Shown here one piece after another: positions 11,567-58,616 of a stretch of 64,000 nt of DNA. The stretch lies in assembly GCA_035529155.1 (NCBI GenBank), contig DATKXF010000077.1:9131-73130 (forward strand), in the 5' to 3' direction. The position numbers and the translations under genes were made by a program. Positions within the stretch are counted from its first letter, which is position 1. Each line of letters opens with the position of its first letter. The stretch comes from Methanomassiliicoccales archaeon. GTDB taxonomy: Archaea > Thermoplasmatota > Thermoplasmata > Methanomassiliicoccales > JAAEEP01. A model generated the notes under the pieces. That model was not told the origin of the DNA. It saw only the letters and a list, made by a program, of their open reading frames with translations, and made no database searches.

Positions 11567-11638
11567 TGCGGCCGCCGGGATTTGAACCCGGGTTTGAGGC
11601 TTGGGAAGCCTCAGTCCTAACCACTAGACTACGGCCGC
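11567..11638 (-). tRNA. tRNA-Gly (anticodon CCC)
   Basis: The reverse complement GCGGCCGTAGTCTAGTGGTTAGGACTGAGGCTTCCCAAGCCTCAAACCCGGGTTCAAATCCCGGCGGCCGCA folds as a cloverleaf. It has a 7-bp acceptor, anticodon loop TTCCCAA and T-loop GGTTCAAATCC. CCA is not encoded. Confidence 0.9.
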
Positions 11639-41067: not shown

Positions 41068-41076
41068 TTTATATAA
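41068..41076 (+). promoter_or_regulatory. TATA-box-like element upstream of tRNA-Lys
   Basis: 'AAAGTTTATATAACAACACTAG' lies 47 nt upstream of the tRNA 5' end. It shares TATAACA..CTAG with the rpoH promoter candidate. Confidence 0.4.
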
Positions 41077-41122
41077 CAACACTAGTTTCCCGTTCTTCCG
41101 CATGCCGACATCAACTTCCAAT

Positions 41123-41258
41123 GGGCCCGTAGCTCAGCTAGGTAGGATGCTTGCTAGCAGGTGTCCCTAGAAAGAGCATCTGGCTTTTAACCAGGTGGTC
41201 CGGGGTTCGAAAAACTCACGAAAGGGCATCGTGTGTATCGGAAATCCCCGCGGGCCCG
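41123..41258 (+). tRNA. tRNA-Lys (anticodon UUU) interrupted by two non-canonical introns (D-loop about 29 nt, T-loop about 33 nt)
   Basis: The exons rebuild a perfect 74-nt cloverleaf: acceptor GGGCCCG/CGGGCCC, D stem GCTC (41132-35)/GAGC (41174-77), anticodon arm TCTGG-CTTTTAA-CCAGG, variable loop TGGTC, and T stem CGGGG (41201-05)/CCCCG (41246-50). Splice-site positions are ambiguous by 1-2 nt. Confidence 0.75.
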
Positions 41259-41316
41259 CTTGGAAAGGCGAGGGAAACGATGGAGCACAACCTTCAAATC
41301 GGTAACAGTCGATGTA

Positions 41317-41325
41317 TTTTTATAA
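41317..41325 (+). promoter_or_regulatory. TATA-box-like element upstream of the rpoH operon
   Basis: 'GTATTTTTATAACACTAGCAC' lies about 65 nt upstream of the rpoH GTG. Confidence 0.4.
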
Positions 41326-41388
41326 CACTAGCACTTAGTAGTCCAGAAGGGCTATTGGTAGGTTGGAAGGGTCCATTCAGCCGGCGAG

Positions 41389-41658
41389 GTGGTATCTGTG
41401 TCTGATATAGGTTTTAATGTCTTAGAGCACGAACTCGTGCCCGAACACTATCTGCTCTCCGAGGAGGAAGCCGGAGAGGTCTTGAGTAGAATGAATTTGA
41501 GCCGGGATCAGCTTCCCAAGATTCGGCATAACGATGCTTGCATCAAGATTCTAGAAAACATTTACGGTCCCATATCGGAAGGCCGAGTAATCAAGGTTGT
41601 AAGGAAGAGCCTGACCGCGGAGCAATTCGTGGCCTACCGTCTGGTCATCAGAGGGTGA
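41389..41658 (+). CDS. rpoH: DNA-directed RNA polymerase subunit H (Rpo5)
   Basis: '[18 protein letters not shown]...LPKI...D...K......G.VIKVVRKS' is typical of RpoH. GTG start (41389 or 41398). Confidence 0.85.
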
Positions 41659-44600
41659 AAGAATTGCGAGATCTCGTAGAACTGTATTTTAAAGAGCGGA
41701 GCATAGTGAATCACCATATCGCTAGCTTCAACGACTTCCTGTCCACGCTCGATAACCCGAATTCGAGAATGCAGAAGATCGTGGACAACCTCCGTGTCTC
41801 TGCGGAGGATATCGACAGAGGAATAATCCGGCTGGACCCAGACCGCACCGATGGAAGGATCATCGAGATCCGGGTCGGTCGCAGGAGGGACGAGAAGGCA
41901 GGTTTGATCGATCCCCAGTCCCGCCCCACGGTGAATATCGACCTCCCGGTGGTCAGGGAGGCGAACGGATACACCCACAAGCTTACACCCATGGAAGCGA
42001 GGCTGAGGAATCTCAACTACCTGGCCCCCATCTATGTCGATTTCACAGTGATCGAGGATGGCATCGAGAAGGAGCCTGAACGCGTGCACGTGGGTGATCT
42101 CCCCATCATGTCCAGGTCAAAGAAATGCAACCTCTACAAGGAGAGCCTGGAGGAGGAGAGGGAACTCACCCAGGAGGAGTACGAGCGGAAGCTCATAGAG
42201 GAGGGAGAGGATCCCAGTGACCCTGGCGGCTACTTCATCATAGGTGGCACGGAGAGGGTCCTGATATCATTGGAGGACCTCGCTCCCAACCGTGTCATGG
42301 TGGAGTTCAACGAGCGCTACGGCACCAGGCTCGAGGTGGCCAAGGTCTTCTCCCAGAGGGAGGGGTACAGAGCCCTTACTCTGGTAGAGAAGAAGAAGGA
42401 CGGCATGCTGATGGTCACCGTTCCCGCCGCTTCAGGTCAGATTCCCCTTGTCGCGCTCATGAAGGCATTGGGGATGGACAGCGACGAAGAGATCTATCAG
42501 GCAATAGTGGGCGTACCTGAGATGGCCAACATAGTGTACGCCAACATTGAGGAGTGCCAGGACAGCAAGATGTTCCCGCCCAACGGCATTTTCACCACAG
42601 ACGATGCGCTGCTGTACCTGGAGAGGAAGTTCGCGACCGGCCAGGCCAAGGAGTACAGGGTGAAGAAAGTGGAGTCGATCATCGACCGCTCCCTGCTCCC
42701 CCACCTGGGCGACACTCAGGAGGACCGCCTCAAGAAGGCCATATTCCTGGGAAGGATCGCGCGATCAGTTCTGGAGCTTTCACTGGGCCTCAGGAAGGAG
42801 GATGACAAGGACCACTACGCCAACAAGAGACTCAAGCTATCCGGCGACCTCATGGAAGACCTCTTCCGCGTAGCCTACACCAACCTCATGAAGGACCTCA
42901 AATATCAGCTTGAGAGGAACTACGCCCGCAAGAAGGACCTGAGGATAGCCTCCGCAATCCGGCCCGACCTTCTCACCCACAGGCTACTCCATGCCCTGGC
43001 CACGGGAAACTGGGTCGGGGGAAGGGCAGGTGTTAGCCAGCTCTTGGACCGCACCTCCAACATGAGCACCATATCCCACCTGAGAAGGATCACATCATCA
43101 CTAACGAGATCGCAGCCGCACTTCGAGGCTCGAGATCTGCACCCCACTCAGTGGGGGCGGCTGTGCCCCAACGAGACCCCTGAGGGTCAGAACTGCGGTC
43201 TGGTTAAGAATGCGGCCCTCATCATCGATGTTTCCGAGGGCTTCAGGGAAGAGGACGTACACTGGTTGCTTCGTGACCTGGGAGTCAAGGAGGTCAAAGG
43301 ACAGCAACAGACCGGTACCCGTGTCTACGTCAACGGGGACCTGGTGGGCGTCCATGACAAATCAAAGGAACTCGTCAACGAGATCAGGCAGAGGAGGCGC
43401 TGCGGCCTTCTCTCCCATGAGATCAATGTTCGGCATGACGAGGAGATGGACGAGATTATCATCAACTGCGATGAGGGAAGGCTGCGCCGCCCACTTCTGG
43501 TTATTGCCAACGGAAAGACTGTCCTGACCAGGAGGCACCTGGAGAACATCCAGGATGGCAGGGCCAGATGGTCCGATCTTCTCCGGGACGGGGTCCTTGA
43601 ATGGCTGGACGCCGAGGAGGAAGAGGACTGTTTCATTGCCGTGGAGCCTTTCCACGTACCCGAACGATGCCCCAACTGCGCTACCGCACTATCACCGTCC
43701 GACGTGGATTGGATCAACCCTGGTGGCGAAGAGGGAAGCATCGTGCTTCAGTGCCTGCACTGCAATGGCCAGATCACAGTTCCGACCCTGATCGGCAAGG
43801 AGCACACCCACATGGAACTTGATCCCATGTGTATCCTTGGCGCCTGTGCAGGTTTGGTTCCATATCCAGAGCACAACTCCTCGCCAAGGGTGACCATGGG
43901 AGCGGGAATGGCCAAACAGTCTTTGGGTCTGGCCACATCCAATTACAGGCGCAGGCCTGACACCAGGGGTCATCTTCTACATTACCCCCAAAAGCCCATG
44001 GCCCAGACCAACACCATGGAGTTCGTGCATTTCAACGAGCGTCCGGCTGGACAGAACTTCGTCGTGGCTGTTCTGTCATACCACGGTTACAACATGGAGG
44101 ATGCGCTGGTCCTGAACGAGGCAAGCGTGCAGAGAGGCCTGGGACGGTCCTCCTTCATGAGGACCTACCGTGCCGAAGAGCGCCGATATCCCGGTGGTCA
44201 GGAGGACCACTTCGAGATACCCTCCCCCGATGTCAGGGGTGCGAGGGCGGACATGGCCTACACCAACCTCAGCGAGGACGGCCTGATATCGCCCGAGACG
44301 GCGGTGAGCGGCGGTGATGTTCTCATCGGGAAGACGTCGCCACCCAGGTTCCTTGAGGAGGATACCGATTTCCTGACTCCCCAGAAGAGGAGGGAGACCT
44401 CCATAACAGTTAGACCCGGCGAATCTGGCTGGGTTGACAGCGTGATGCTTACCGAATCCGAGAACGGGAGCCGACTGGTCAAGGTTAAGGTTAGAGATCA
44501 GAGGATACCGGAGCTTGGAGATAAGTTCGCATCCAGGCACGGCCAGAAGGGCGTGATAGGTCTGCTGGCACCTCAGGAGGACATGCCTTTCACCTCGCAA

Positions 44601-45253
44601 GGCGTGATTCCCGACCTGGTCATCAACCCCCACGCCATCCCGTCGCGTATGACCGTGGCCCATGTCCTCGAGATGATCGGTGGAAAGGTTGGGTCCATGG
44701 AAGCTCGCCTGGTCGATGGTACCCCATTCTCCGGAGAGACGGAGCAGGCTCTGAGGGAAGCCCTAGTGCGCAACGGATACAAGCACTCAGGGAAGGAGGT
44801 CATGTACGATGGACGTACAGGCCGCATGATTCCGGCAGATATCTTCATCGGTGTGATCTATTACCAGAAACTTCATCACATGGTCTCAGGTAAGTTGCAT
44901 GTTCGATCCCGTGGACCTGTTCAGATACTCACCAGGCAACCCACCGAAGGCCGGTCGAGACAGGGTGGCCTAAGGTTCGGAGAGATGGAGAGGGACTGCC
45001 TCATAGGCCATGGAGCGGCCATGGTCATAAAGGACCGTCTGCTCGACGAGTCGGACGGGACCATGCAGTATGTCTGCGGTAACCCCGACTGCGGGCACGT
45101 GGCCATGATGGACCGCAGGGGCGCACTGCGCTGCTCAGTATGTGGCAACAACACCAATGTCCACCTGGTGCAGACTTCGTATGCATTCAAACTGCTGCTT
45201 GATGAACTGCTGTCGCTTGGCGTTGCCATGCGACTTCAACTGGAGGATTTGCG

Positions 45254-45257
<4 letters not shown>
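41655..45257 (+). CDS. rpoB: DNA-directed RNA polymerase subunit B (Rpo2), unsplit
   Basis: 1,200 aa covering both B''-type and B'-type regions ('[18 protein letters not shown]', 'GRHGQKG'-like '[11 protein letters not shown]', C-terminal Zn motif 'CGNPDCGH...CSVCGN'). The GTG start overlaps the rpoH stop (GTGA). Confidence 0.95.
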
Positions 45258-52118: not shown

Positions 52119-55100
52119 ATGGCTAGGAATAGAGGGGCCAGAGAAAGGCCCCCGTCCACAAATAGACAGTCGATGAAAGCGGGCTTCAAGCCCCGCTTCC
52201 AGCGTTCATGGTTCGGCAAGAACTGGCACATCATTGCCATTCTGGCCACCATCTTGTTCATAGCGTTCTTCGTCAGGACATACTTCGGGTACTCGATCTC
52301 CGTGGATAACGGATACCTCGTATCCGGAGGATCGGACTCCTATTATCATGAGAGGGTAATCGATCATGTCATGAACACGGGCCAGCACCTGGTCCAAGAT
52401 CCCATGCTGAATTATCCAGGTGGGATGAGGAATGCGAGACCTCCACTCTATGACTGGTCCGTTGCCGTAACGGGGTCATTACTGAATGCCTTCGGTTTGG
52501 ATTCGTTCGATGCTATGGGCTTCGCTCTGGTGATGTCAACGGCATTCTGGGGAACTCTTACTATAATACCCGTCTTCCTGATGGGCAGGGCCGCCTTTGG
52601 CAACAAGGCGGGACTGGTAGCCGCACTGCTGTTCGCTATCATGTCAGGTCACATCCAGAGGAGCGTGATGTCCAACGCCGATCACGATGCAATGGTGCTT
52701 TTCTTCGCAGTCTGCTCCTTCTACTTCCTGATGCTCGCCCTGATGAATGTCAAGGGCAACAAGTGGGTCTCTAAATGGGGAGACACAAGCTCCATACGGA
52801 GCGGTATCCGAAGTTATCTGGGTCAGAACAAGATCTCCCTGCTTTACGCAGTTCTATCGGGAACCATGCTGGCGGCAGTGGCCATGATATGGACCGGTTT
52901 CGCCTACTTGGTGGTAATCGTTCTTGTCTACCTGCTCGTGCAGGTTCTGGTCAATCGCTTCAGGGACATAGACTCCATGGGCGTGGTCTTCACGGTGGGA
53001 TTGATGCTGCTGATGGGCTTTGCCATCATGGCTCCGGTCTACTACCAGATGAACTACTGGGACACCTGGTTCGACATTCCATTCTACATGTTCATGGCGG
53101 GTATGATCTTCGGTGGATACTTCGTGATCACCAGGGATTACCCCTGGACACTGACGATTCCGGTATTCATGATAGTGGGTGGAGGCGCCCTTTTCGTGCT
53201 GTCGTTCACCATGCCCAGCCTGTTCGAGGCATTGATAACTGGGCAGGGATACTTCGTCCAGAGCAAGCTGTACTCCACAATCTCGGAGGCACAGCCACCG
53301 GATTTCTCCAACCTGGTACTATCATTCGGAATCCTGACATTCTGGCTTTCATTTGCCGGCGTGATCTATGCGGCGATGAAGGTAGCGAAGGATACCAGCC
53401 CATACCTCATCTTCATAGTGGTGTGGAGTGGTGTCTCGATGTTCATGGCCATCTCAGCCGGGAGGTTCATGTTCAATGCGGCTCCGGCTTTCGCCATCAC
53501 GGCAGGTTGGATAGCCGCTATAATGATCGACTGGATCAACTTCCAGGACATTCCCAAGACCCTATCTGGCACGACGGGAAATCCCATCCAGGCCCTGAGA
53601 AAAGCGGTCAAATTGAGGCATGTACTGGGAGCGTTGTTCCTGGCATTCCTGATCATCGTACCCAATGTCTGGTTCGCGATGGACGCGGGAATACCATCGA
53701 ATTCCAAGGAGGAGTACTCGCAGCAGGTCTACGATGTCATGCCTAATTTCCTGAAACCACCCGATTACGATGTGGTCAACGGGACATCATGGTACTTCGG
53801 TGCATTCTCCTACAATATACCTCTTCCAACCAGCTACTGGCCATCGGCTTGGAGTTGGTTCAGTGAACGTGATAGTGACATCGTTCCAGAAGCGGCAAAA
53901 CCGGCATTCCTGTCATGGTGGGACTACGGTTTCGAGGCGGTGAGGGAAGGCAAGCATCCAACCGTGGCAGACAACTTCCAGAACGCCTACCAGTTCGCTG
54001 GACAGTTCATCACATGTCAGAACGAGGACTACGCCATCGCCATGCTGATCACAAGGACTCTTGAGGAAACAGGCGTTTCCGACAATCAGACCATCGTGGC
54101 AATCCTTGAGAGTTACGATGTCGATGTGGACAAGGTCAACGACATCATGACCAATCCATCAAAATACGTCAAGGTGGTCTTGGATCATCCCGATATCTAC
54201 GGACCATATGACAGCGATCTGAGCGCCAAGAACGCCGAGTACTCGGCGATGCAGGTGGAGCTGGCCGTTATCGGATCTGACAATCTGATCGACCTTTACC
54301 ACGACCTGAGGGAACAGACAGGCATCGATATAGGCTATTTCGCCATCGACGGCCGCCTGTTCCCCTTCACCGCTTTCGGATACAACATCTTCTACGCTCC
54401 GGCCTCGCTTTCCGATCACAGGACCGATCAGTTCAATCAGCCCTACGACTTCTACCAGATACTTGCAGTCGATCAGTACGGTGAGACGCACACATTCGAG
54501 AATGTCACCGCCGACATGGTCATCGTGGACTACACCATCGAGTACAAGGAGATGTTCTATGAATCCATGCTTTACCGCACGTTCATGGGCTACGGTCCCT
54601 ACGACATAGGATACACGAGCCAGGGAATCCCGGGTATCTCGGGATCCCTCGTCAACCTGCCGCCCATGCAGGGCTGGAACCTCACGCACTTCAGGATGGT
54701 TTACCGCACCGCGTACTACAACCCCTATCCTACGGCGCTGGTCCCTGATCACCCAGAGGCCTGGAGGGCTGTCTCATGGGAAGAGGCGGTCGAGCTTAAG
54801 GAGAAGATCGACGCCGGCGAGATAGACGGCATGGTGGACATGTCCGCCCCGACACTCGCCAGCGGCGTGGTCTTCGTTCAGTATTACGAAGGAGCGATAA
54901 TCGAGGGTACGGCCACCACTGAATCGGGCAAGCCTTTCGCCAATGCATGGGTGACCGTGCTTGACGACTATGGAGTGCCACATCACACGGTCAAGACCGA
55001 TGAGAACGGTCACTACAGCGCGATCATGCCTTTCGGTAACGTCACAATCGTATACTCGTACGGTGACCTCGATCTCAGGACCCAGGTCGCGGGAGAGCTG

Positions 55101-58100
55101 CTGATGGTCAACCACAACATCAGCTACTCTCAGGCCATGAGGGCGGAGGTCGATGCCGACAATGATGGTGTGTGGGATTACCACATCAACGGAGATGTGC
55201 AGATACCTTCCAGCAGCATTGACGGCACGGTGTTCTGGGACATAGACGGCGACGGGAAGTTCAACCCAACGGTCGACGAGCCAATGACCGACGCCCAGGT
55301 AATACTCAACGGCACCTCGATCGACTTCTACGAGGAGCAGGAGGTCGATAGCTCAGGCAAGTACCTGTTCTACTCGATACCTCCAATGACCGCTGACCTG
55401 TACGCGTACAACAAGGACCGCGAGCTTGGTCTGACAGTCCAGGAGATATTCCCGCTGGCAGATCGTACCGTCGACATCCCGGTCCGGCCCAACGCCATCA
55501 ACGGTACGCTGGTCTACGAGACTGGAGAACCCGCTTCCGGCGTTGTGGTGGAGATGGTGGACCTGATCAGCGGAGAGGTGACCAACAGGACGACCTCGGA
55601 GGACGGGGAGTTCCAGTTCGCCAAGCTGCTTCCAGGCAACTACTCGCTGAGACTTCGGAATCAGGCTGTCTCCATCGGGCAGCAGGTGTTCAATCTCGAG
55701 AACGGACGCAATGTAGACAAGACCTTCACGATCTACGACTCTATGCATATATCCGGTACGGTCAGGCTTGAGGGAACCATCACCACCAACGTGCTTGTGG
55801 GAGCGATATCCCCCACCACAGAGGTGTGGACCACCTCCGACTCCACCGGAAAATACTCCCTTCTTGTTCCAGAAGGCACCTACACCATCTACTCCATAGC
55901 GGTTAAGGCCGGTATCGAGTATGCCTGGATCGGTGCGACATCGGGCACAGGCGAGGTAACCGTGAATCCCAACCTGGTCAAGGGCAAGGTGATTACCGGG
56001 ACCGTCTACGAGGGAGGAGTGCCCTCGGCGGATACGGAGATCGTGTTCGAGGAAAGGACCAGCGGCGCCAGTCTCGCCCTGATAACCAATTCCAGCGGCG
56101 GGTTCAGAACGGTGCTGCCCACGGGAACCTACTTCATGTACTCTCACACGGACTCCCACGCAATCTGGCAAGATGTCTACATCTCTTCCACGAAGAGAAT
56201 GGATGTCTACCTCACCGAGGCCGTGCACCTCTCTGGAGTGGTATGGACCGACTCCAATGGGAACGAACTCATGGGAGACCAGGAGGGAATGGAAGGAGCC
56301 ACTATAACAGTGAATGATCCCGACGGCAGGGAGATCACATCGACCTCCGATCCCGACGGACAGTACCTGGTCACCCTGGTACCGGGGAACACCTACCAGG
56401 TGAGCTTCTCTTTCGATGGTTATCAGACGGTCGAAAGGGAGTACAAGCCACTGATGAAATCCGTGGATGAGGACATCGAGCTTGTTCCCGAGAACAGGAC
56501 CATCCAGGGAAGCGCCTTCTTCGATACCACGGCTCTGGATGACATCGAGGTTCGCTTCTACGCGGTCGGCGGAGGGGCGGTCAACGCATCCGTGATGACC
56601 GATGCTCACGGGCTATTCAGCATATCTCTTGCTCCCGGCCAGTACCTCGTACAGGTTGACCAGAACGTCACTCTGGGAAGCAACGCCACGCGCTGGCAGA
56701 ACTACACTACTCTGACAGTGGTCATCGGGGAGAACCCAGAACCACTTGACTTGGATGTGGTGAAGCGCGCTCGGGTCTACGGCGAGATCGTACCCGACAG
56801 GGACGTGATGACCTCCATAACCTTCGATGGACCGGAGACGAAGGAGATCAATGTTGACGGGACATTCGACATCTACCTCATTCCAGGAGTATACGACATC
56901 TATGCCTACTCTGAGAAGTTCAACGCCCGCTACGCCTCCCTGGAGAGAATGACGCTCGACCAGACATCATCACCCATCGTGATAATCACTGACAGAGCAT
57001 ATCCACTCGATGGCAGTCTGGTCTTCGGGGACGGACCTTTCCTGAAAGCGACACCGGTTTCCATATCCGATACAAGCGGAGCTACGCTCAGCATCAAGAC
57101 CAACAACATTGGCATGTTCACTACCTACCTGCTGCCGGGCATGTACGCGATCGAGGTCAACTACAGTGCTGTAGAAAGAATAGGCCTTGAACAGAGATAC
57201 CTCAGATACACGGGTTACAAGGAGGTCGACATGCTCTCTGGAACAGAGATCGACATCGAGCTCGACAGGGACTACGACAACTCCACCGTCAGCGGAATGC
57301 TGCTAGGAACGGATGGCAACCCAGTGGCGGGTTCCTTGACCTTCACAGCAAGATCGGAGACTTCGATGAACGCCTCCGCAACGGCGACCATGGCCGGTTT
57401 CGACCTGGAGATGGCGCCGGGCGAGTACAGCGTCTACGCCAAGCAGTTCGATGGGCCAGGTGCTTACCTGGGCGTGATCGAGATCGAGCCATACGAACCG
57501 AATCTCATAACGATCCAGCTTGAGTCCGGCCTGAGGTTCAGCGGAAAGACGATCTACAGCGGGGCCCAGGGTCCAGCAAGCATTCAGATCTCTGGCGATG
57601 GAACCGTTCACCTGGAAAGCGGACCCGACGGATCCTATGAGATATTCCTTCCCGGAGGAAGTTACAGCGTCACCTGTTCCGCCGAAGCTGTCGAACGTGA
57701 GATGGACGTCGAGTACCTCTCCTCCTTCGAGCTGGAGCTGGAGAGCAGTACCAGCAAGACCATAGAGTTGGAGAAGCAGGTGCGCCTCGGAGTGACGGTC
57801 CAATGGAATGAGCAGGAAAAGGCCACCATCCTGCCTGGCGAGAAGGCGGTCTACACCATCACGCTGGTGAACAACGGCAATGTGAAGGACACCTACGAGC
57901 TTTCCACGCTCTTCACCTCGTGGGACGTGGAGTTCTCCCAGGAAAAGGTCACAGTGGACTTCGGCAGCCAGAACTCGGCCGTGGTCACCGCTACGATCCT
58001 GACCCCTGCCGATGCCAAGGTAGAACACGCTAAGGTCAGGATATTGGCACAGTCGACCACGCAATCCAGTAAGTCCGGAAGCGTGGACGTGGATGTGAAC

Positions 58101-58616
58101 ATCATAGCGGTAAGGTCACTGAACCTCATATTCGACAAGGGCTTCCCAACATCGGGTGAGAGCTATTCCTATTCGGTGAAGCTCGACAACCTGGGCAACA
58201 TCGAGGACACCTATCACATCACTGTGGCCAACGCCGAGCAGCTGGCTTCCCTGGGATGGACATACAGCTTCGCCAACACCACTGAACGTTGGATTGAGGT
58301 CACCGTGGATGCGGGCAAGCCGGCCTACTTCACAATGTCACTCACGCCCATCAGGAGCAATCCAGATCCCGATGTTGAGCTTGTCCTGTTCGCCAGGTCT
58401 AACTCGGAGGGCACGGTTCAGAAAGCTCTTCCAGTGATACTGAATCTGCCCCATGTGACCGTACCAGATCTCTCTGTCACCGGAACATCCGTGCACGACA
58501 GCGCGCCCACCATTCCACTGGGGACAATTGCCCTGGGAGGCGCGGCGCTTGTGCTGTTCGTGATAGTTGTGCTTCTCGGATATCAGAAGGGGGTATTCAG
58601 ACGAAGAAAACGCTGA
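52119..58616 (+). CDS. aglB: giant AglB/STT3 oligosaccharyltransferase fused to Ig-like repeat array and C-terminal membrane anchor
   Basis: N-terminal polytopic region has 'GGSDSYYHER', and WWDYG is at residues 600-604 (nt 53916-53930). Residues from about 905 hold at least 11 CarboxypepD_reg-like repeats and 2 CARDB-like modules. The terminal TM is 'IALGGAALVLFVIVVLLGY' followed by 'RRRKR'. A single uninterrupted 2,165-codon ORF. Confidence 0.85.
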   Translation: MARNRGARERPPSTNRQSMKAGFKPRFQRSWFGKNWHIIAILATILFIAFFVRTYFGYSISVDNGYLVSGGSDSYYHERVIDHVMNTGQHLVQDPMLNYPGGMRNARPPLYDWSVAVTGSLLNAFGLDSFDAMGFALVMSTAFWGTLTIIPVFLMGRAAFGNKAGLVAALLFAIMSGHIQRSVMSNADHDAMVLFFAVCSFYFLMLALMNVKGNKWVSKWGDTSSIRSGIRSYLGQNKISLLYAVLSGTMLAAVAMIWTGFAYLVVIVLVYLLVQVLVNRFRDIDSMGVVFTVGLMLLMGFAIMAPVYYQMNYWDTWFDIPFYMFMAGMIFGGYFVITRDYPWTLTIPVFMIVGGGALFVLSFTMPSLFEALITGQGYFVQSKLYSTISEAQPPDFSNLVLSFGILTFWLSFAGVIYAAMKVAKDTSPYLIFIVVWSGVSMFMAISAGRFMFNAAPAFAITAGWIAAIMIDWINFQDIPKTLSGTTGNPIQALRKAVKLRHVLGALFLAFLIIVPNVWFAMDAGIPSNSKEEYSQQVYDVMPNFLKPPDYDVVNGTSWYFGAFSYNIPLPTSYWPSAWSWFSERDSDIVPEAAKPAFLSWWDYGFEAVREGKHPTVADNFQNAYQFAGQFITCQNEDYAIAMLITRTLEETGVSDNQTIVAILESYDVDVDKVNDIMTNPSKYVKVVLDHPDIYGPYDSDLSAKNAEYSAMQVELAVIGSDNLIDLYHDLREQTGIDIGYFAIDGRLFPFTAFGYNIFYAPASLSDHRTDQFNQPYDFYQILAVDQYGETHTFENVTADMVIVDYTIEYKEMFYESMLYRTFMGYGPYDIGYTSQGIPGISGSLVNLPPMQGWNLTHFRMVYRTAYYNPYPTALVPDHPEAWRAVSWEEAVELKEKIDAGEIDGMVDMSAPTLASGVVFVQYYEGAIIEGTATTESGKPFANAWVTVLDDYGVPHHTVKTDENGHYSAIMPFGNVTIVYSYGDLDLRTQVAGELLMVNHNISYSQAMRAEVDADNDGVWDYHINGDVQIPSSSIDGTVFWDIDGDGKFNPTVDEPMTDAQVILNGTSIDFYEEQEVDSSGKYLFYSIPPMTADLYAYNKDRELGLTVQEIFPLADRTVDIPVRPNAINGTLVYETGEPASGVVVEMVDLISGEVTNRTTSEDGEFQFAKLLPGNYSLRLRNQAVSIGQQVFNLENGRNVDKTFTIYDSMHISGTVRLEGTITTNVLVGAISPTTEVWTTSDSTGKYSLLVPEGTYTIYSIAVKAGIEYAWIGATSGTGEVTVNPNLVKGKVITGTVYEGGVPSADTEIVFEERTSGASLALITNSSGGFRTVLPTGTYFMYSHTDSHAIWQDVYISSTKRMDVYLTEAVHLSGVVWTDSNGNELMGDQEGMEGATITVNDPDGREITSTSDPDGQYLVTLVPGNTYQVSFSFDGYQTVEREYKPLMKSVDEDIELVPENRTIQGSAFFDTTALDDIEVRFYAVGGGAVNASVMTDAHGLFSISLAPGQYLVQVDQNVTLGSNATRWQNYTTLTVVIGENPEPLDLDVVKRARVYGEIVPDRDVMTSITFDGPETKEINVDGTFDIYLIPGVYDIYAYSEKFNARYASLERMTLDQTSSPIVIITDRAYPLDGSLVFGDGPFLKATPVSISDTSGATLSIKTNNIGMFTTYLLPGMYAIEVNYSAVERIGLEQRYLRYTGYKEVDMLSGTEIDIELDRDYDNSTVSGMLLGTDGNPVAGSLTFTARSETSMNASATATMAGFDLEMAPGEYSVYAKQFDGPGAYLGVIEIEPYEPNLITIQLESGLRFSGKTIYSGAQGPASIQISGDGTVHLESGPDGSYEIFLPGGSYSVTCSAEAVEREMDVEYLSSFELELESSTSKTIELEKQVRLGVTVQWNEQEKATILPGEKAVYTITLVNNGNVKDTYELSTLFTSWDVEFSQEKVTVDFGSQNSAVVTATILTPADAKVEHAKVRILAQSTTQSSKSGSVDVDVNIIAVRSLNLIFDKGFPTSGESYSYSVKLDNLGNIEDTYHITVANAEQLASLGWTYSFANTTERWIEVTVDAGKPAYFTMSLTPIRSNPDPDVELVLFARSNSEGTVQKALPVILNLPHVTVPDLSVTGTSVHDSAPTIPLGTIALGGAALVLFVIVVLLGYQKGVFRRRKR

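Follow-up and report, generated by a model that had tools for sequence, protein, structure and literature searches.

A tRNA-Lys(UUU) gene with two short introns, in the D-loop and the T-loop, conserved across a clade of Methanomassiliicoccales archaea

We analysed a 64,000-nt stretch of DNA from a Methanomassiliicoccales archaeon (GenBank assembly GCA_035529155.1, contig DATKXF010000077.1, positions 9,131 to 73,130 of the forward strand), which is referred to here as the window and whose numbering is used throughout. At 41123-41258 on its forward strand lies a tRNA-Lys(UUU) gene of 136 nt that comprises three exons and two introns, in the arrangement GGGCCCGUAGCUCAGCUAGGUA-[29 nt]-GAGCAUCUGGCUUUUAACCAGGUGGUCCGGGGUUCGAA-[33 nt]-UCCCCGCGGGCCCG. 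Excision of 41145-41173 (29 nt) and 41212-41244 (33 nt) gives a 74-mer, which ARAGORN called as tRNA-Lys(ttt), in agreement with an earlier note that had read a 74-nt tRNA-Lys(UUU) out of this locus after two excisions. The spliced 74-mer forms a standard cloverleaf (7-bp acceptor, 4-bp D, 5-bp anticodon and 5-bp T stems), and its 7-nt anticodon loop, CUUUUAA, is intact, with a UUU anticodon and no intron at position 37/38. Before splicing, the 136-nt locus received no call from ARAGORN and no match from the Rfam tRNA model, either at the gathering threshold or at E<=10.

The repeated A/G at its junctions allows intron 1 to be drawn in three equivalent placements, all of which leave the mature sequence unchanged. 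The boundaries were placed with the archaeal bulge-helix-bulge (BHB) rule (Marck and Grosjean 2003, as summarised in PMC6379350), in which a central 4-bp helix is followed by a 3-nt bulge 3′ of each strand and the cut falls after the second bulge nucleotide. The coordinates of the earlier note hold for intron 2 (41212-41244), and under this rule those of intron 1 move one base to the left, from 41145-41173 to 41144-41172 (position 20/21), with the same mature sequence. The gene is laid out as follows, with an arrow marking a predicted cut here and below.

41123-41258, forward strand: whole tRNA-Lys(UUU) gene; discriminator G at 41258, CCA not encoded
41123-41143, forward strand: exon 1, tRNA positions 1-20 (acceptor 5′ strand, D-stem 5′ strand, D-loop to U20), bounded by the BHB rule and the intron-less orthologue CTAGGT↓AGAGC
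41144-41172 (= 41145-41173), forward strand: intron 1, 29 nt, D-loop position 20/21; absent from L003-L010 and L020, 29-30 nt in 16 alleles
41173-41211, forward strand: exon 2, tRNA positions 21-59 (D-stem 3′ strand, anticodon arm, variable loop, T-stem 5′ strand, T-loop to A59)
41212-41244, forward strand: intron 2, 33 nt, T-loop position 59/60; absent from L003-L010, 27-33 nt in 17 alleles including L020
41245-41258, forward strand: exon 3, tRNA positions 60-73

A tRNA-Lys(UUU) gene immediately 5′ of rpoH is syntenic across Thermoplasmata. At loci L003-L010 this gene is intron-less, is detected by ARAGORN and matches the spliced product of the window at 68-71 of 74 positions, which fixes the mature D-loop as AGCUAGGUA and the mature T-loop as UUCGAAU. 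The orthology rests on six other Thermoplasmata genomes (L003-L008). When reference genomes were searched with RpoH, matches came only from Methanomassiliicoccales and other Thermoplasmata metagenome-assembled genomes (MAGs), the best of them with 81% identity. The closest relatives, L001 and L002, have exons identical to those of the window and carry, in the same places, insertions of the same length with different sequences. A metagenome scan in which a T-loop insertion was required and a D-loop insertion allowed yielded 20 further contigs. The MAGs and metagenomes gave 16 distinct two-intron alleles, with an intron 1 of 29-30 nt and an intron 2 of 30-33 nt; the exons are nearly invariant across these alleles, and the introns occupy identical positions with divergent sequences. 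The near identity of the intron-less syntenic orthologues and the recurrence of the same two insertions in 16 alleles indicate that the locus is not a chance pattern. Since the RpoH proteins of the intron-bearing organisms are 49-81% identical to that of the window, the two-intron structure is old and spread over a deep clade, and it is conserved across a clade of Methanomassiliicoccales archaea.

One contig, L020 (2304-2404, reverse strand), carries the T-loop intron only (27 nt) and lacks the D-loop intron; its RpoH is 57% identical to that of the window, and 3 of the 4 pairs of its central helix are retained (UUCG/AGAA). The presence of a T-loop intron alone indicates that the two introns represent separable gain or loss events. 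No second Lys-like tRNA was found in the 377 kb of DNA examined, and blastn-short searches of this DNA for other copies of either intron returned, outside the Lys loci, only chance matches of 10-11 nt. In a permissive Rfam pass, the window contained no other interrupted tRNAs or tRNA fragments. Its sole other tRNA is an intron-less tRNA-Gly(CCC) (11567-11638, reverse strand, Rfam 70.7 bits), an ordinary gene, which indicates that interrupted tRNAs are not general in this genome segment. The inserts do not match self-splicing group I or group II introns, being only 29 and 33 nt long and giving no Rfam match at E<=10, and the gene is neither split nor permuted, its three exons being collinear within 136 nt.

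The unspliced RNA has a minimum free energy (MFE) of -60.7 kcal/mol (z = -4.29 against 200 dinucleotide shuffles), and the MFE fold of the 136-nt RNA contains a helix-bulge-helix at each of the two junctions. Application of the BHB rule resolves these junctions into the elements below, in which H is the central helix, h the outer helix and h′ the intron hairpin.

41138-41141, forward strand: intron 1 central 4-bp helix H, exon strand C16-G18, CUAG; pairs with 41167-41170, the pairing being invariant in all alleles
41142-41144, forward strand: intron 1 5′ splice bulge G19 U20↓A, 3 nt long and a true bulge, with H and h′ on either side
41145-41166, forward strand: intron 1 hairpin h′, 9 bp, GGAUGCUUG/CAGGUGUCC with a 4-nt loop, contiguous with the bulge
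41167-41170, forward strand: intron 1 central 4-bp helix H, intron strand CUAG
41171-41173, forward strand: intron 1 3′ splice site A A↓A21, facing A14 G15 in a 3x2 internal loop beside the D-stem
41206-41209, forward strand: intron 2 central 4-bp helix H, exon strand U54-G57, UUCG; pairs with 41239-41242 (CGGA)
41210-41212, forward strand: intron 2 5′ splice bulge A58 A59↓A
41214-41236, forward strand: intron 2 hairpin ACUCACG/CGUGUGU, with one U.U mismatch
41239-41242, forward strand: intron 2 central 4-bp helix H, intron strand CGGA
41243-41245, forward strand: intron 2 3′ splice bulge A A↓U60, canonical at 3 nt and flanked by H on one side and the intact 5-bp T-stem (h) on the other

The outer helix h of intron 1 is the D-stem, offset from H by the unpaired A14 G15, and RNAalifold likewise shows no pairing for columns 14-15 and 50-52, which lie between the D-stem and H. 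Because the 3′ site lies in a 3x2 internal loop facing A14 G15, intron 1 is modelled as a relaxed HBh′ motif and does not take the strict hBHBh′ form, in which two outer helices of at least 2 bp each adjoin the bulges directly. Intron 2 is predicted to form a near-canonical hBHBh′ motif, whose h′ is contiguous in L022 and is broken by a 1-nt bulge or a mismatch in the window and in some other alleles. The predicted cuts, GU↓A...AA↓A and AA↓A...AA↓U, recreate the D- and T-loops of the orthologues exactly. Both BHB motifs fit in one fold of the same precursor, so that no splicing order is imposed.

Two competing pairings were rejected. The MFE structure drew intron 1 in a register with H = UAGG/CCUA and a bulge UA↓G, which would give a 76-nt product with a D-loop 2 nt longer than that of any orthologue; the register with the 4-bp H listed above is the only one that restores the mature sequence of the orthologues. 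The 5′ end of intron 1 (GAUGCU) can also form 6 bp with exon 2 (AGCAUC); this was regarded as a chance match, as the pairing is kept neither in L001 (GAUUCU) nor in other alleles.

Unguided RNAalifold recovered the whole two-BHB architecture from the alignment. All 16 two-intron alleles have, at intron 1, H = CUAG/CUAG with bulges GU↓A and A[A/G]↓A and, at intron 2, H = UUCG/CGRA with bulges AA↓N and A[A/U]↓U and an intact T-stem. One pair of the intron 2 H is U.G in 10 alleles and U-A in 6 (CGGA versus CGAA) and is broken in 0 of 16. Under the explicit structure, standard pairs fill 96.6% of cells, compared with 32-52% when the partners are slid; cells changed on both sides number 30, against 11.6 +/- 2.6 in column shuffles (0/500), and the covariation score is 0.154, against 0.087 in shuffles. 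Changes on both sides occur in 8 pairs, and all variation falls within the two intron hairpins. The hairpin of intron 1 shows compensatory change at 4 of its 9 pairs and is paired in 97.9% of cells; columns 26/42, for example, are occupied by CG in 8 alleles, UA in 4, UG in 2, AU in 1 and GC in 1. The hairpin of intron 2 has 4 compensatory pairs out of 8, and its 82.8% of paired cells is an underestimate, as MAFFT offsets three 33-nt alleles; its stems can differ wholly between alleles, such as AUCCUCGG/CCGAGGGU in L002 and GUACGCGG/CCGUGUAU in L012. The exon helices are invariant and therefore give no covariation evidence either way. Judged from this pattern of change, selection acts on the helices of the insertions and not on their sequence, as would be expected of a processing signal. 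Synteny, exon invariance, the BHB folds and the compensatory changes in both hairpins thus bear out the proposal of the earlier note that the introns lie in the D-loop and the T-loop, with none at 37/38; the BHB-like structure for which each junction was to be checked is present at both, in the relaxed HBh′ form at intron 1.

The flanks of the gene contain the following features.

41068-41075, forward strand: TATA-like box TTTATATA, 48 nt upstream of tRNA position 1
41116-41121, forward strand: 5′ leader segment UUCCAA, complementary to the trailer at 41260-41265
41260-41265, forward strand: 3′ trailer segment UUGGAA, which pairs with the leader
41389-41658, forward strand: rpoH (RNA polymerase subunit H/Rpb5), the syntenic anchor, outside the tRNA gene (Pfam RNA_pol_Rpb5_C, E = 2.5e-25)
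41538-45257, forward strand: rpoB, a single unsplit gene, listed as an open reading frame (ORF) of 1239 aa, overlapping the end of rpoH

A TTTAAATA or TTAAATA box occurs in all two-intron alleles at the same distance (range 47-52 nt upstream), and the TATA-like box is probably the promoter of the tRNA gene. The distance from the tRNA gene to rpoH is 130 nt in the window, 130-144 nt in the two-intron contigs with enough sequence and 70 nt in L020. Downstream of rpoH come the unsplit rpoB and then rpoA′ and rpoA″; an unsplit rpoB fits Thermoplasmata, rpoB being split in methanogen and halophile lineages. An ORF of 2165 aa (52119-58616, forward strand) lies downstream of the RNA polymerase operon.

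The leader and trailer segments form a duplex that continues the acceptor stem beyond a small internal loop in which U-1 faces G73 and C+1. This pairing is also found in L012, L022, L023, L027, L003 and L004; its proximal part, CCAA/UUGG, is invariant in the two-intron alleles, and its distal part varies in sequence yet still pairs, as in L023 (CUCACUAUCCAA/UUGGGUGGGUGAG). Duplex energies are better than those of shuffles in most alleles. The helix forms no BHB and is absent from the distant Thermoplasmata (L005-L008). Within the leader of about 35 nt (41090-41122, with equivalents in L001-L031), the blocks CCCGTTC...CGC and GCCGGCA (GCCGACA in the window) are conserved across distant alleles, a degree of conservation that exceeds expectation for a leader that is simply discarded. 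On the 3′ side, an ATG about 20-28 nt from the tRNA is kept in most alleles. The small spacer ORF that starts from this codon in the window (ATG 41281; 41281-41405) was rejected as probably no gene, its frame not being conserved and its shared residues being confined to the rpoH TATA box (41317-41325).

We propose that the gene is expressed through the established archaeal pathway of transcription, EndA cleavage and ligation. The TATA-box promoter of the gene itself would drive synthesis of a precursor with two short introns, in which C16-G18 of the D-loop would provide one strand of the central helix for intron 1 (20/21) and U54-G57 of the T-loop one strand for intron 2 (59/60). EndA would cut two nucleotides into each bulge at both BHBs, an RtcB-type ligase would join the three exons into a 74-nt tRNA with the same D-loop and T-loop as the intron-less orthologues, and RNase P, tRNase Z and the CCA-adding enzyme would finish the ends. 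By analogy with other archaeal tRNAs, EndA cleavage followed by RtcB ligation is the most likely route of removal. We consider it very probable that the locus is a real, functional tRNA-Lys(UUU) gene with two short introns, with its own TATA-box promoter and EndA/RtcB splicing, and probably the only Lys(UUU) gene of its genome.

The endonuclease is the demanding part of this proposal. According to reviews, relaxed motifs are cut efficiently only by EndA of the (alpha-beta)2 or epsilon2 type, and Cluster II Euryarchaeota, including Thermoplasmata, have alpha'2 EndA only (PMC6379350, PMC5829648, PMC4090602). With M. jannaschii EndA (identical to PDB 1A79) as the query, phmmer found no EndA gene in the window or in loci L001-L031. 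A protein designated P0186 was reached through two profile searches, whose labels read only 'Thermoplasmata archaeon', followed by a cluster look-up that gave Methanomassiliicoccales archaeon PtaU1.Bin030 and Methanomassiliicoccus sp. as cluster members. It is a single chain of 351 aa with the Pfam domain order N-C-N-C, which points to the alpha'2 type; it shows neither a heterotetrameric nor a three-unit architecture, and its link to the window genome is at the level of the order only. The C-terminal repeat has a complete Tyr/His/Lys triad and the N-terminal repeat has Phe/His/Lys. The insert of 3P1Y (A. fulgidus EndA with the Crenarchaea-specific (L1) loop) falls opposite gaps in P0186. Over its full length, P0186 is matched best among PDB entries by 5X89, the fused alpha-beta enzyme of M. 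kandleri (E = 3.8e-40); the value for A. fulgidus alpha'2 is E = 3e-31. At this order-level link, the Methanomassiliicoccales EndA appears to be an ordinary-looking alpha'2 enzyme without the Crenarchaea-specific loop, and the relaxed-specificity EndA predicted earlier for this genome finds no support in the architecture. As side observations, the N-terminal, nominally structural repeat of P0186 is full-sized, and the EndA gene (L032-L037) adjoins a TFB gene in all contigs that show its downstream neighbour (L032-L035).

Several points weigh against our explanation of the locus. Intron 1 is a relaxed HBh′ motif, of the kind that the literature assigns to (alpha-beta)2 or epsilon2 EndA (PMC6379350, PMC5829648), and the sole identified Methanomassiliicoccales EndA is alpha'2 and lacks the Crenarchaea-specific loop. 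The 3′ splice site of intron 1, facing A14 G15, is not a clean 3-nt bulge; the h′ of intron 2 in the window begins with one base pair and then a 1-nt bulge; and a second, intron-less Lys(UUU) copy may exist elsewhere in the genome. On the other hand, there are two precedents: the loop-less EndA of M. kandleri processes a D-arm HBh′ intron in vivo (PMC5829648), and a bulge-helix-loop within a full-length pre-tRNA is a substrate that A. fulgidus alpha'2 is able to cut (PMC6379350). Other alpha'2 lineages (Methanosarcinales, Methanocellales) also carry some non-canonical introns (PMC8450103). We tentatively suggest, as a serious possibility that falls somewhat short of being probable, that an alpha'2 EndA lacking any known specificity loop routinely removes a relaxed D-loop HBh′ intron and a T-loop intron from what is possibly the clade's only tRNA-Lys(UUU). 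If true, this would break with the accepted rule under which the architecture of EndA determines the tRNA introns that a lineage can carry.

The introns may instead be real and their removal require more than a standard alpha'2 EndA alone, whether an EndA whose specificity has broadened in this lineage, an additional endonuclease subunit or recognition that involves the body of the tRNA. Such a requirement would fit the relaxed HBh′ junction of intron 1, the description of alpha'2 enzymes as narrow in reviews (PMC6379350, PMC5829648, PMC4090602), and a P0186 that lacks the Crenarchaea-specific loop and has M. kandleri 5X89, not A. fulgidus alpha'2, as its best full-length PDB match; M. kandleri, too, has no specificity loop in its EndA and yet handles its D-arm HBh′ intron in vivo (PMC5829648). 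However, the A. fulgidus alpha'2 enzyme acts on a bulge-helix-loop in full-length pre-tRNA (PMC6379350), and the non-canonical introns of Methanosarcinales and Methanocellales also occur alongside alpha'2. We regard this account, which refines our explanation and is no true rival to it, as rather unlikely.

The explanation that the locus is a functional, spliced gene fares far better than those that deny it an intron-bearing tRNA. A decaying tRNA pseudogene with two random insertions would account for the failure of standard tRNA finders at the locus, and the search for a second copy covered 377 kb and not the rest of the genome, although no other Lys-like tRNA turned up within it. Against decay, the exons are essentially invariant in 16 alleles whose RpoH identities are 49-81%, while the introns diverge; the insertions hold their length, position and BHB geometry through compensatory changes; the promoter box is conserved; and the gene is the syntenic counterpart of the intact tRNA-Lys(UUU) of relatives. 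Together, these observations make a pseudogene very improbable. It is just as hard to credit that the insertions are retained as enlarged D- and T-loops, whether in a structurally unusual tRNA or in a tRNA-like RNA that serves some other role: they would sequester G18, U54, U55 and C56, which form the D-loop/T-loop elbow in established tRNA structure, they are framed by BHBs whose predicted cuts restore the orthologue loops exactly, and selection on their helices rather than on their sequence is what a processing signal would show. Least credible of all is that the region codes for an 84-aa protein (ORF 41151-41405) with incidental tRNA features, since this frame, open in the window and its closest relative L001, is interrupted by stop codons in L002, L012, L022, L023 and L024, has as its only conserved peptide stretch the translation of tRNA exon 2 and crosses the promoter and start of rpoH, so that its dismissal as spurious in the earlier note stands.

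Positions 20/21 and 59/60 are both documented sites of archaeal non-canonical introns (PMC4090602). For three Methanomassiliicoccales genomes, the tRNAscan-SE 2.0 paper (Chan et al. 2021, PMC8450103, Table S7) counted 13 canonical and 6 non-canonical introns and one two-intron gene; per genome, no other euryarchaeal group has more non-canonical introns, and Methanopyrus equals this rate. The two-intron gene counted there comes from the same order and may well belong to the present family, but that row holds counts only and does not describe the gene, the intron positions, their conservation or the BHB types. To call the locus notable in a euryarchaeal context, as was done from the sequence at first, is therefore fair but overstated, given that non-canonical introns and a two-intron gene had already been counted in Methanomassiliicoccales. 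In the literature on tRNA introns and the splicing endonuclease of Methanomassiliicoccales, we found no dedicated description of the gene, its conservation or the enzyme problem.

The multi-intron tRNAs of Thermoproteales and Thaumarchaeota (Sugahara et al. 2008; Chan et al. 2021) resemble this gene in having short BHB introns outside the anticodon loop, at sites that include 20/21 and 59/60 (PMC4090602), with more than one per gene, in their invisibility to intron-unaware finders and, as far as we infer here, in removal by EndA and a ligase. Unlike them, the present gene belongs to Thermoplasmata, where an alpha'2 EndA is expected (PMC5829648) and not an (alpha-beta)2 enzyme with the Crenarchaea-specific loop, and nothing points to genome-wide proliferation or transposition of introns, the window holding no other interrupted tRNA or intron copy. 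Pre-tRNA-Glu(UUC) of Methanopyrus kandleri (Kaneta et al. 2018, PMC5829648) is also euryarchaeal and likewise combines a relaxed HBh′ D-arm intron with a loop-less EndA. The isoacceptor differs, however, the window locus adds a T-loop intron, and the M. kandleri enzyme is an (alpha-beta)2 heterotetramer, whereas the Methanomassiliicoccales EndA is apparently a single-chain, two-repeat alpha'2. Compared with canonical 37/38 introns, such as those of haloarchaeal tRNA-Trp and elongator tRNA-Met, the same BHB recognition and EndA/RtcB chemistry are expected; here, in contrast, the exon side of the central helix is supplied by nucleotides of the D- and T-loops, and intron 1 has no contiguous exon-side outer helix.

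The finding is of modest novelty: the kind of gene is known, both intron positions are documented, no new mechanism is revealed, and the case is unusual mainly for its lineage. An alpha'2-type lineage would nevertheless depend on removing one relaxed and one near-canonical intron, both outside the anticodon loop, from an essential tRNA, and the conservation of the gene across the clade offers a clean natural test of the proposed co-evolution of EndA architecture and intron type. There is also a consequence for annotation, as ARAGORN and the Rfam tRNA model miss such genes. In Methanomassiliicoccus luminyensis, no tRNA-Lys was found with tRNAscan, ARAGORN, TFAM or BLASTN, and about 17 kb of unassembled sequence was blamed (Borrel et al. 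2014, PMC4153887). Interrupted Lys genes are a plausible alternative cause of this gap, in which case the tRNA-Lys(CUU) would be interrupted too, and genomes of the order may more generally seem to be without an essential lysine tRNA.

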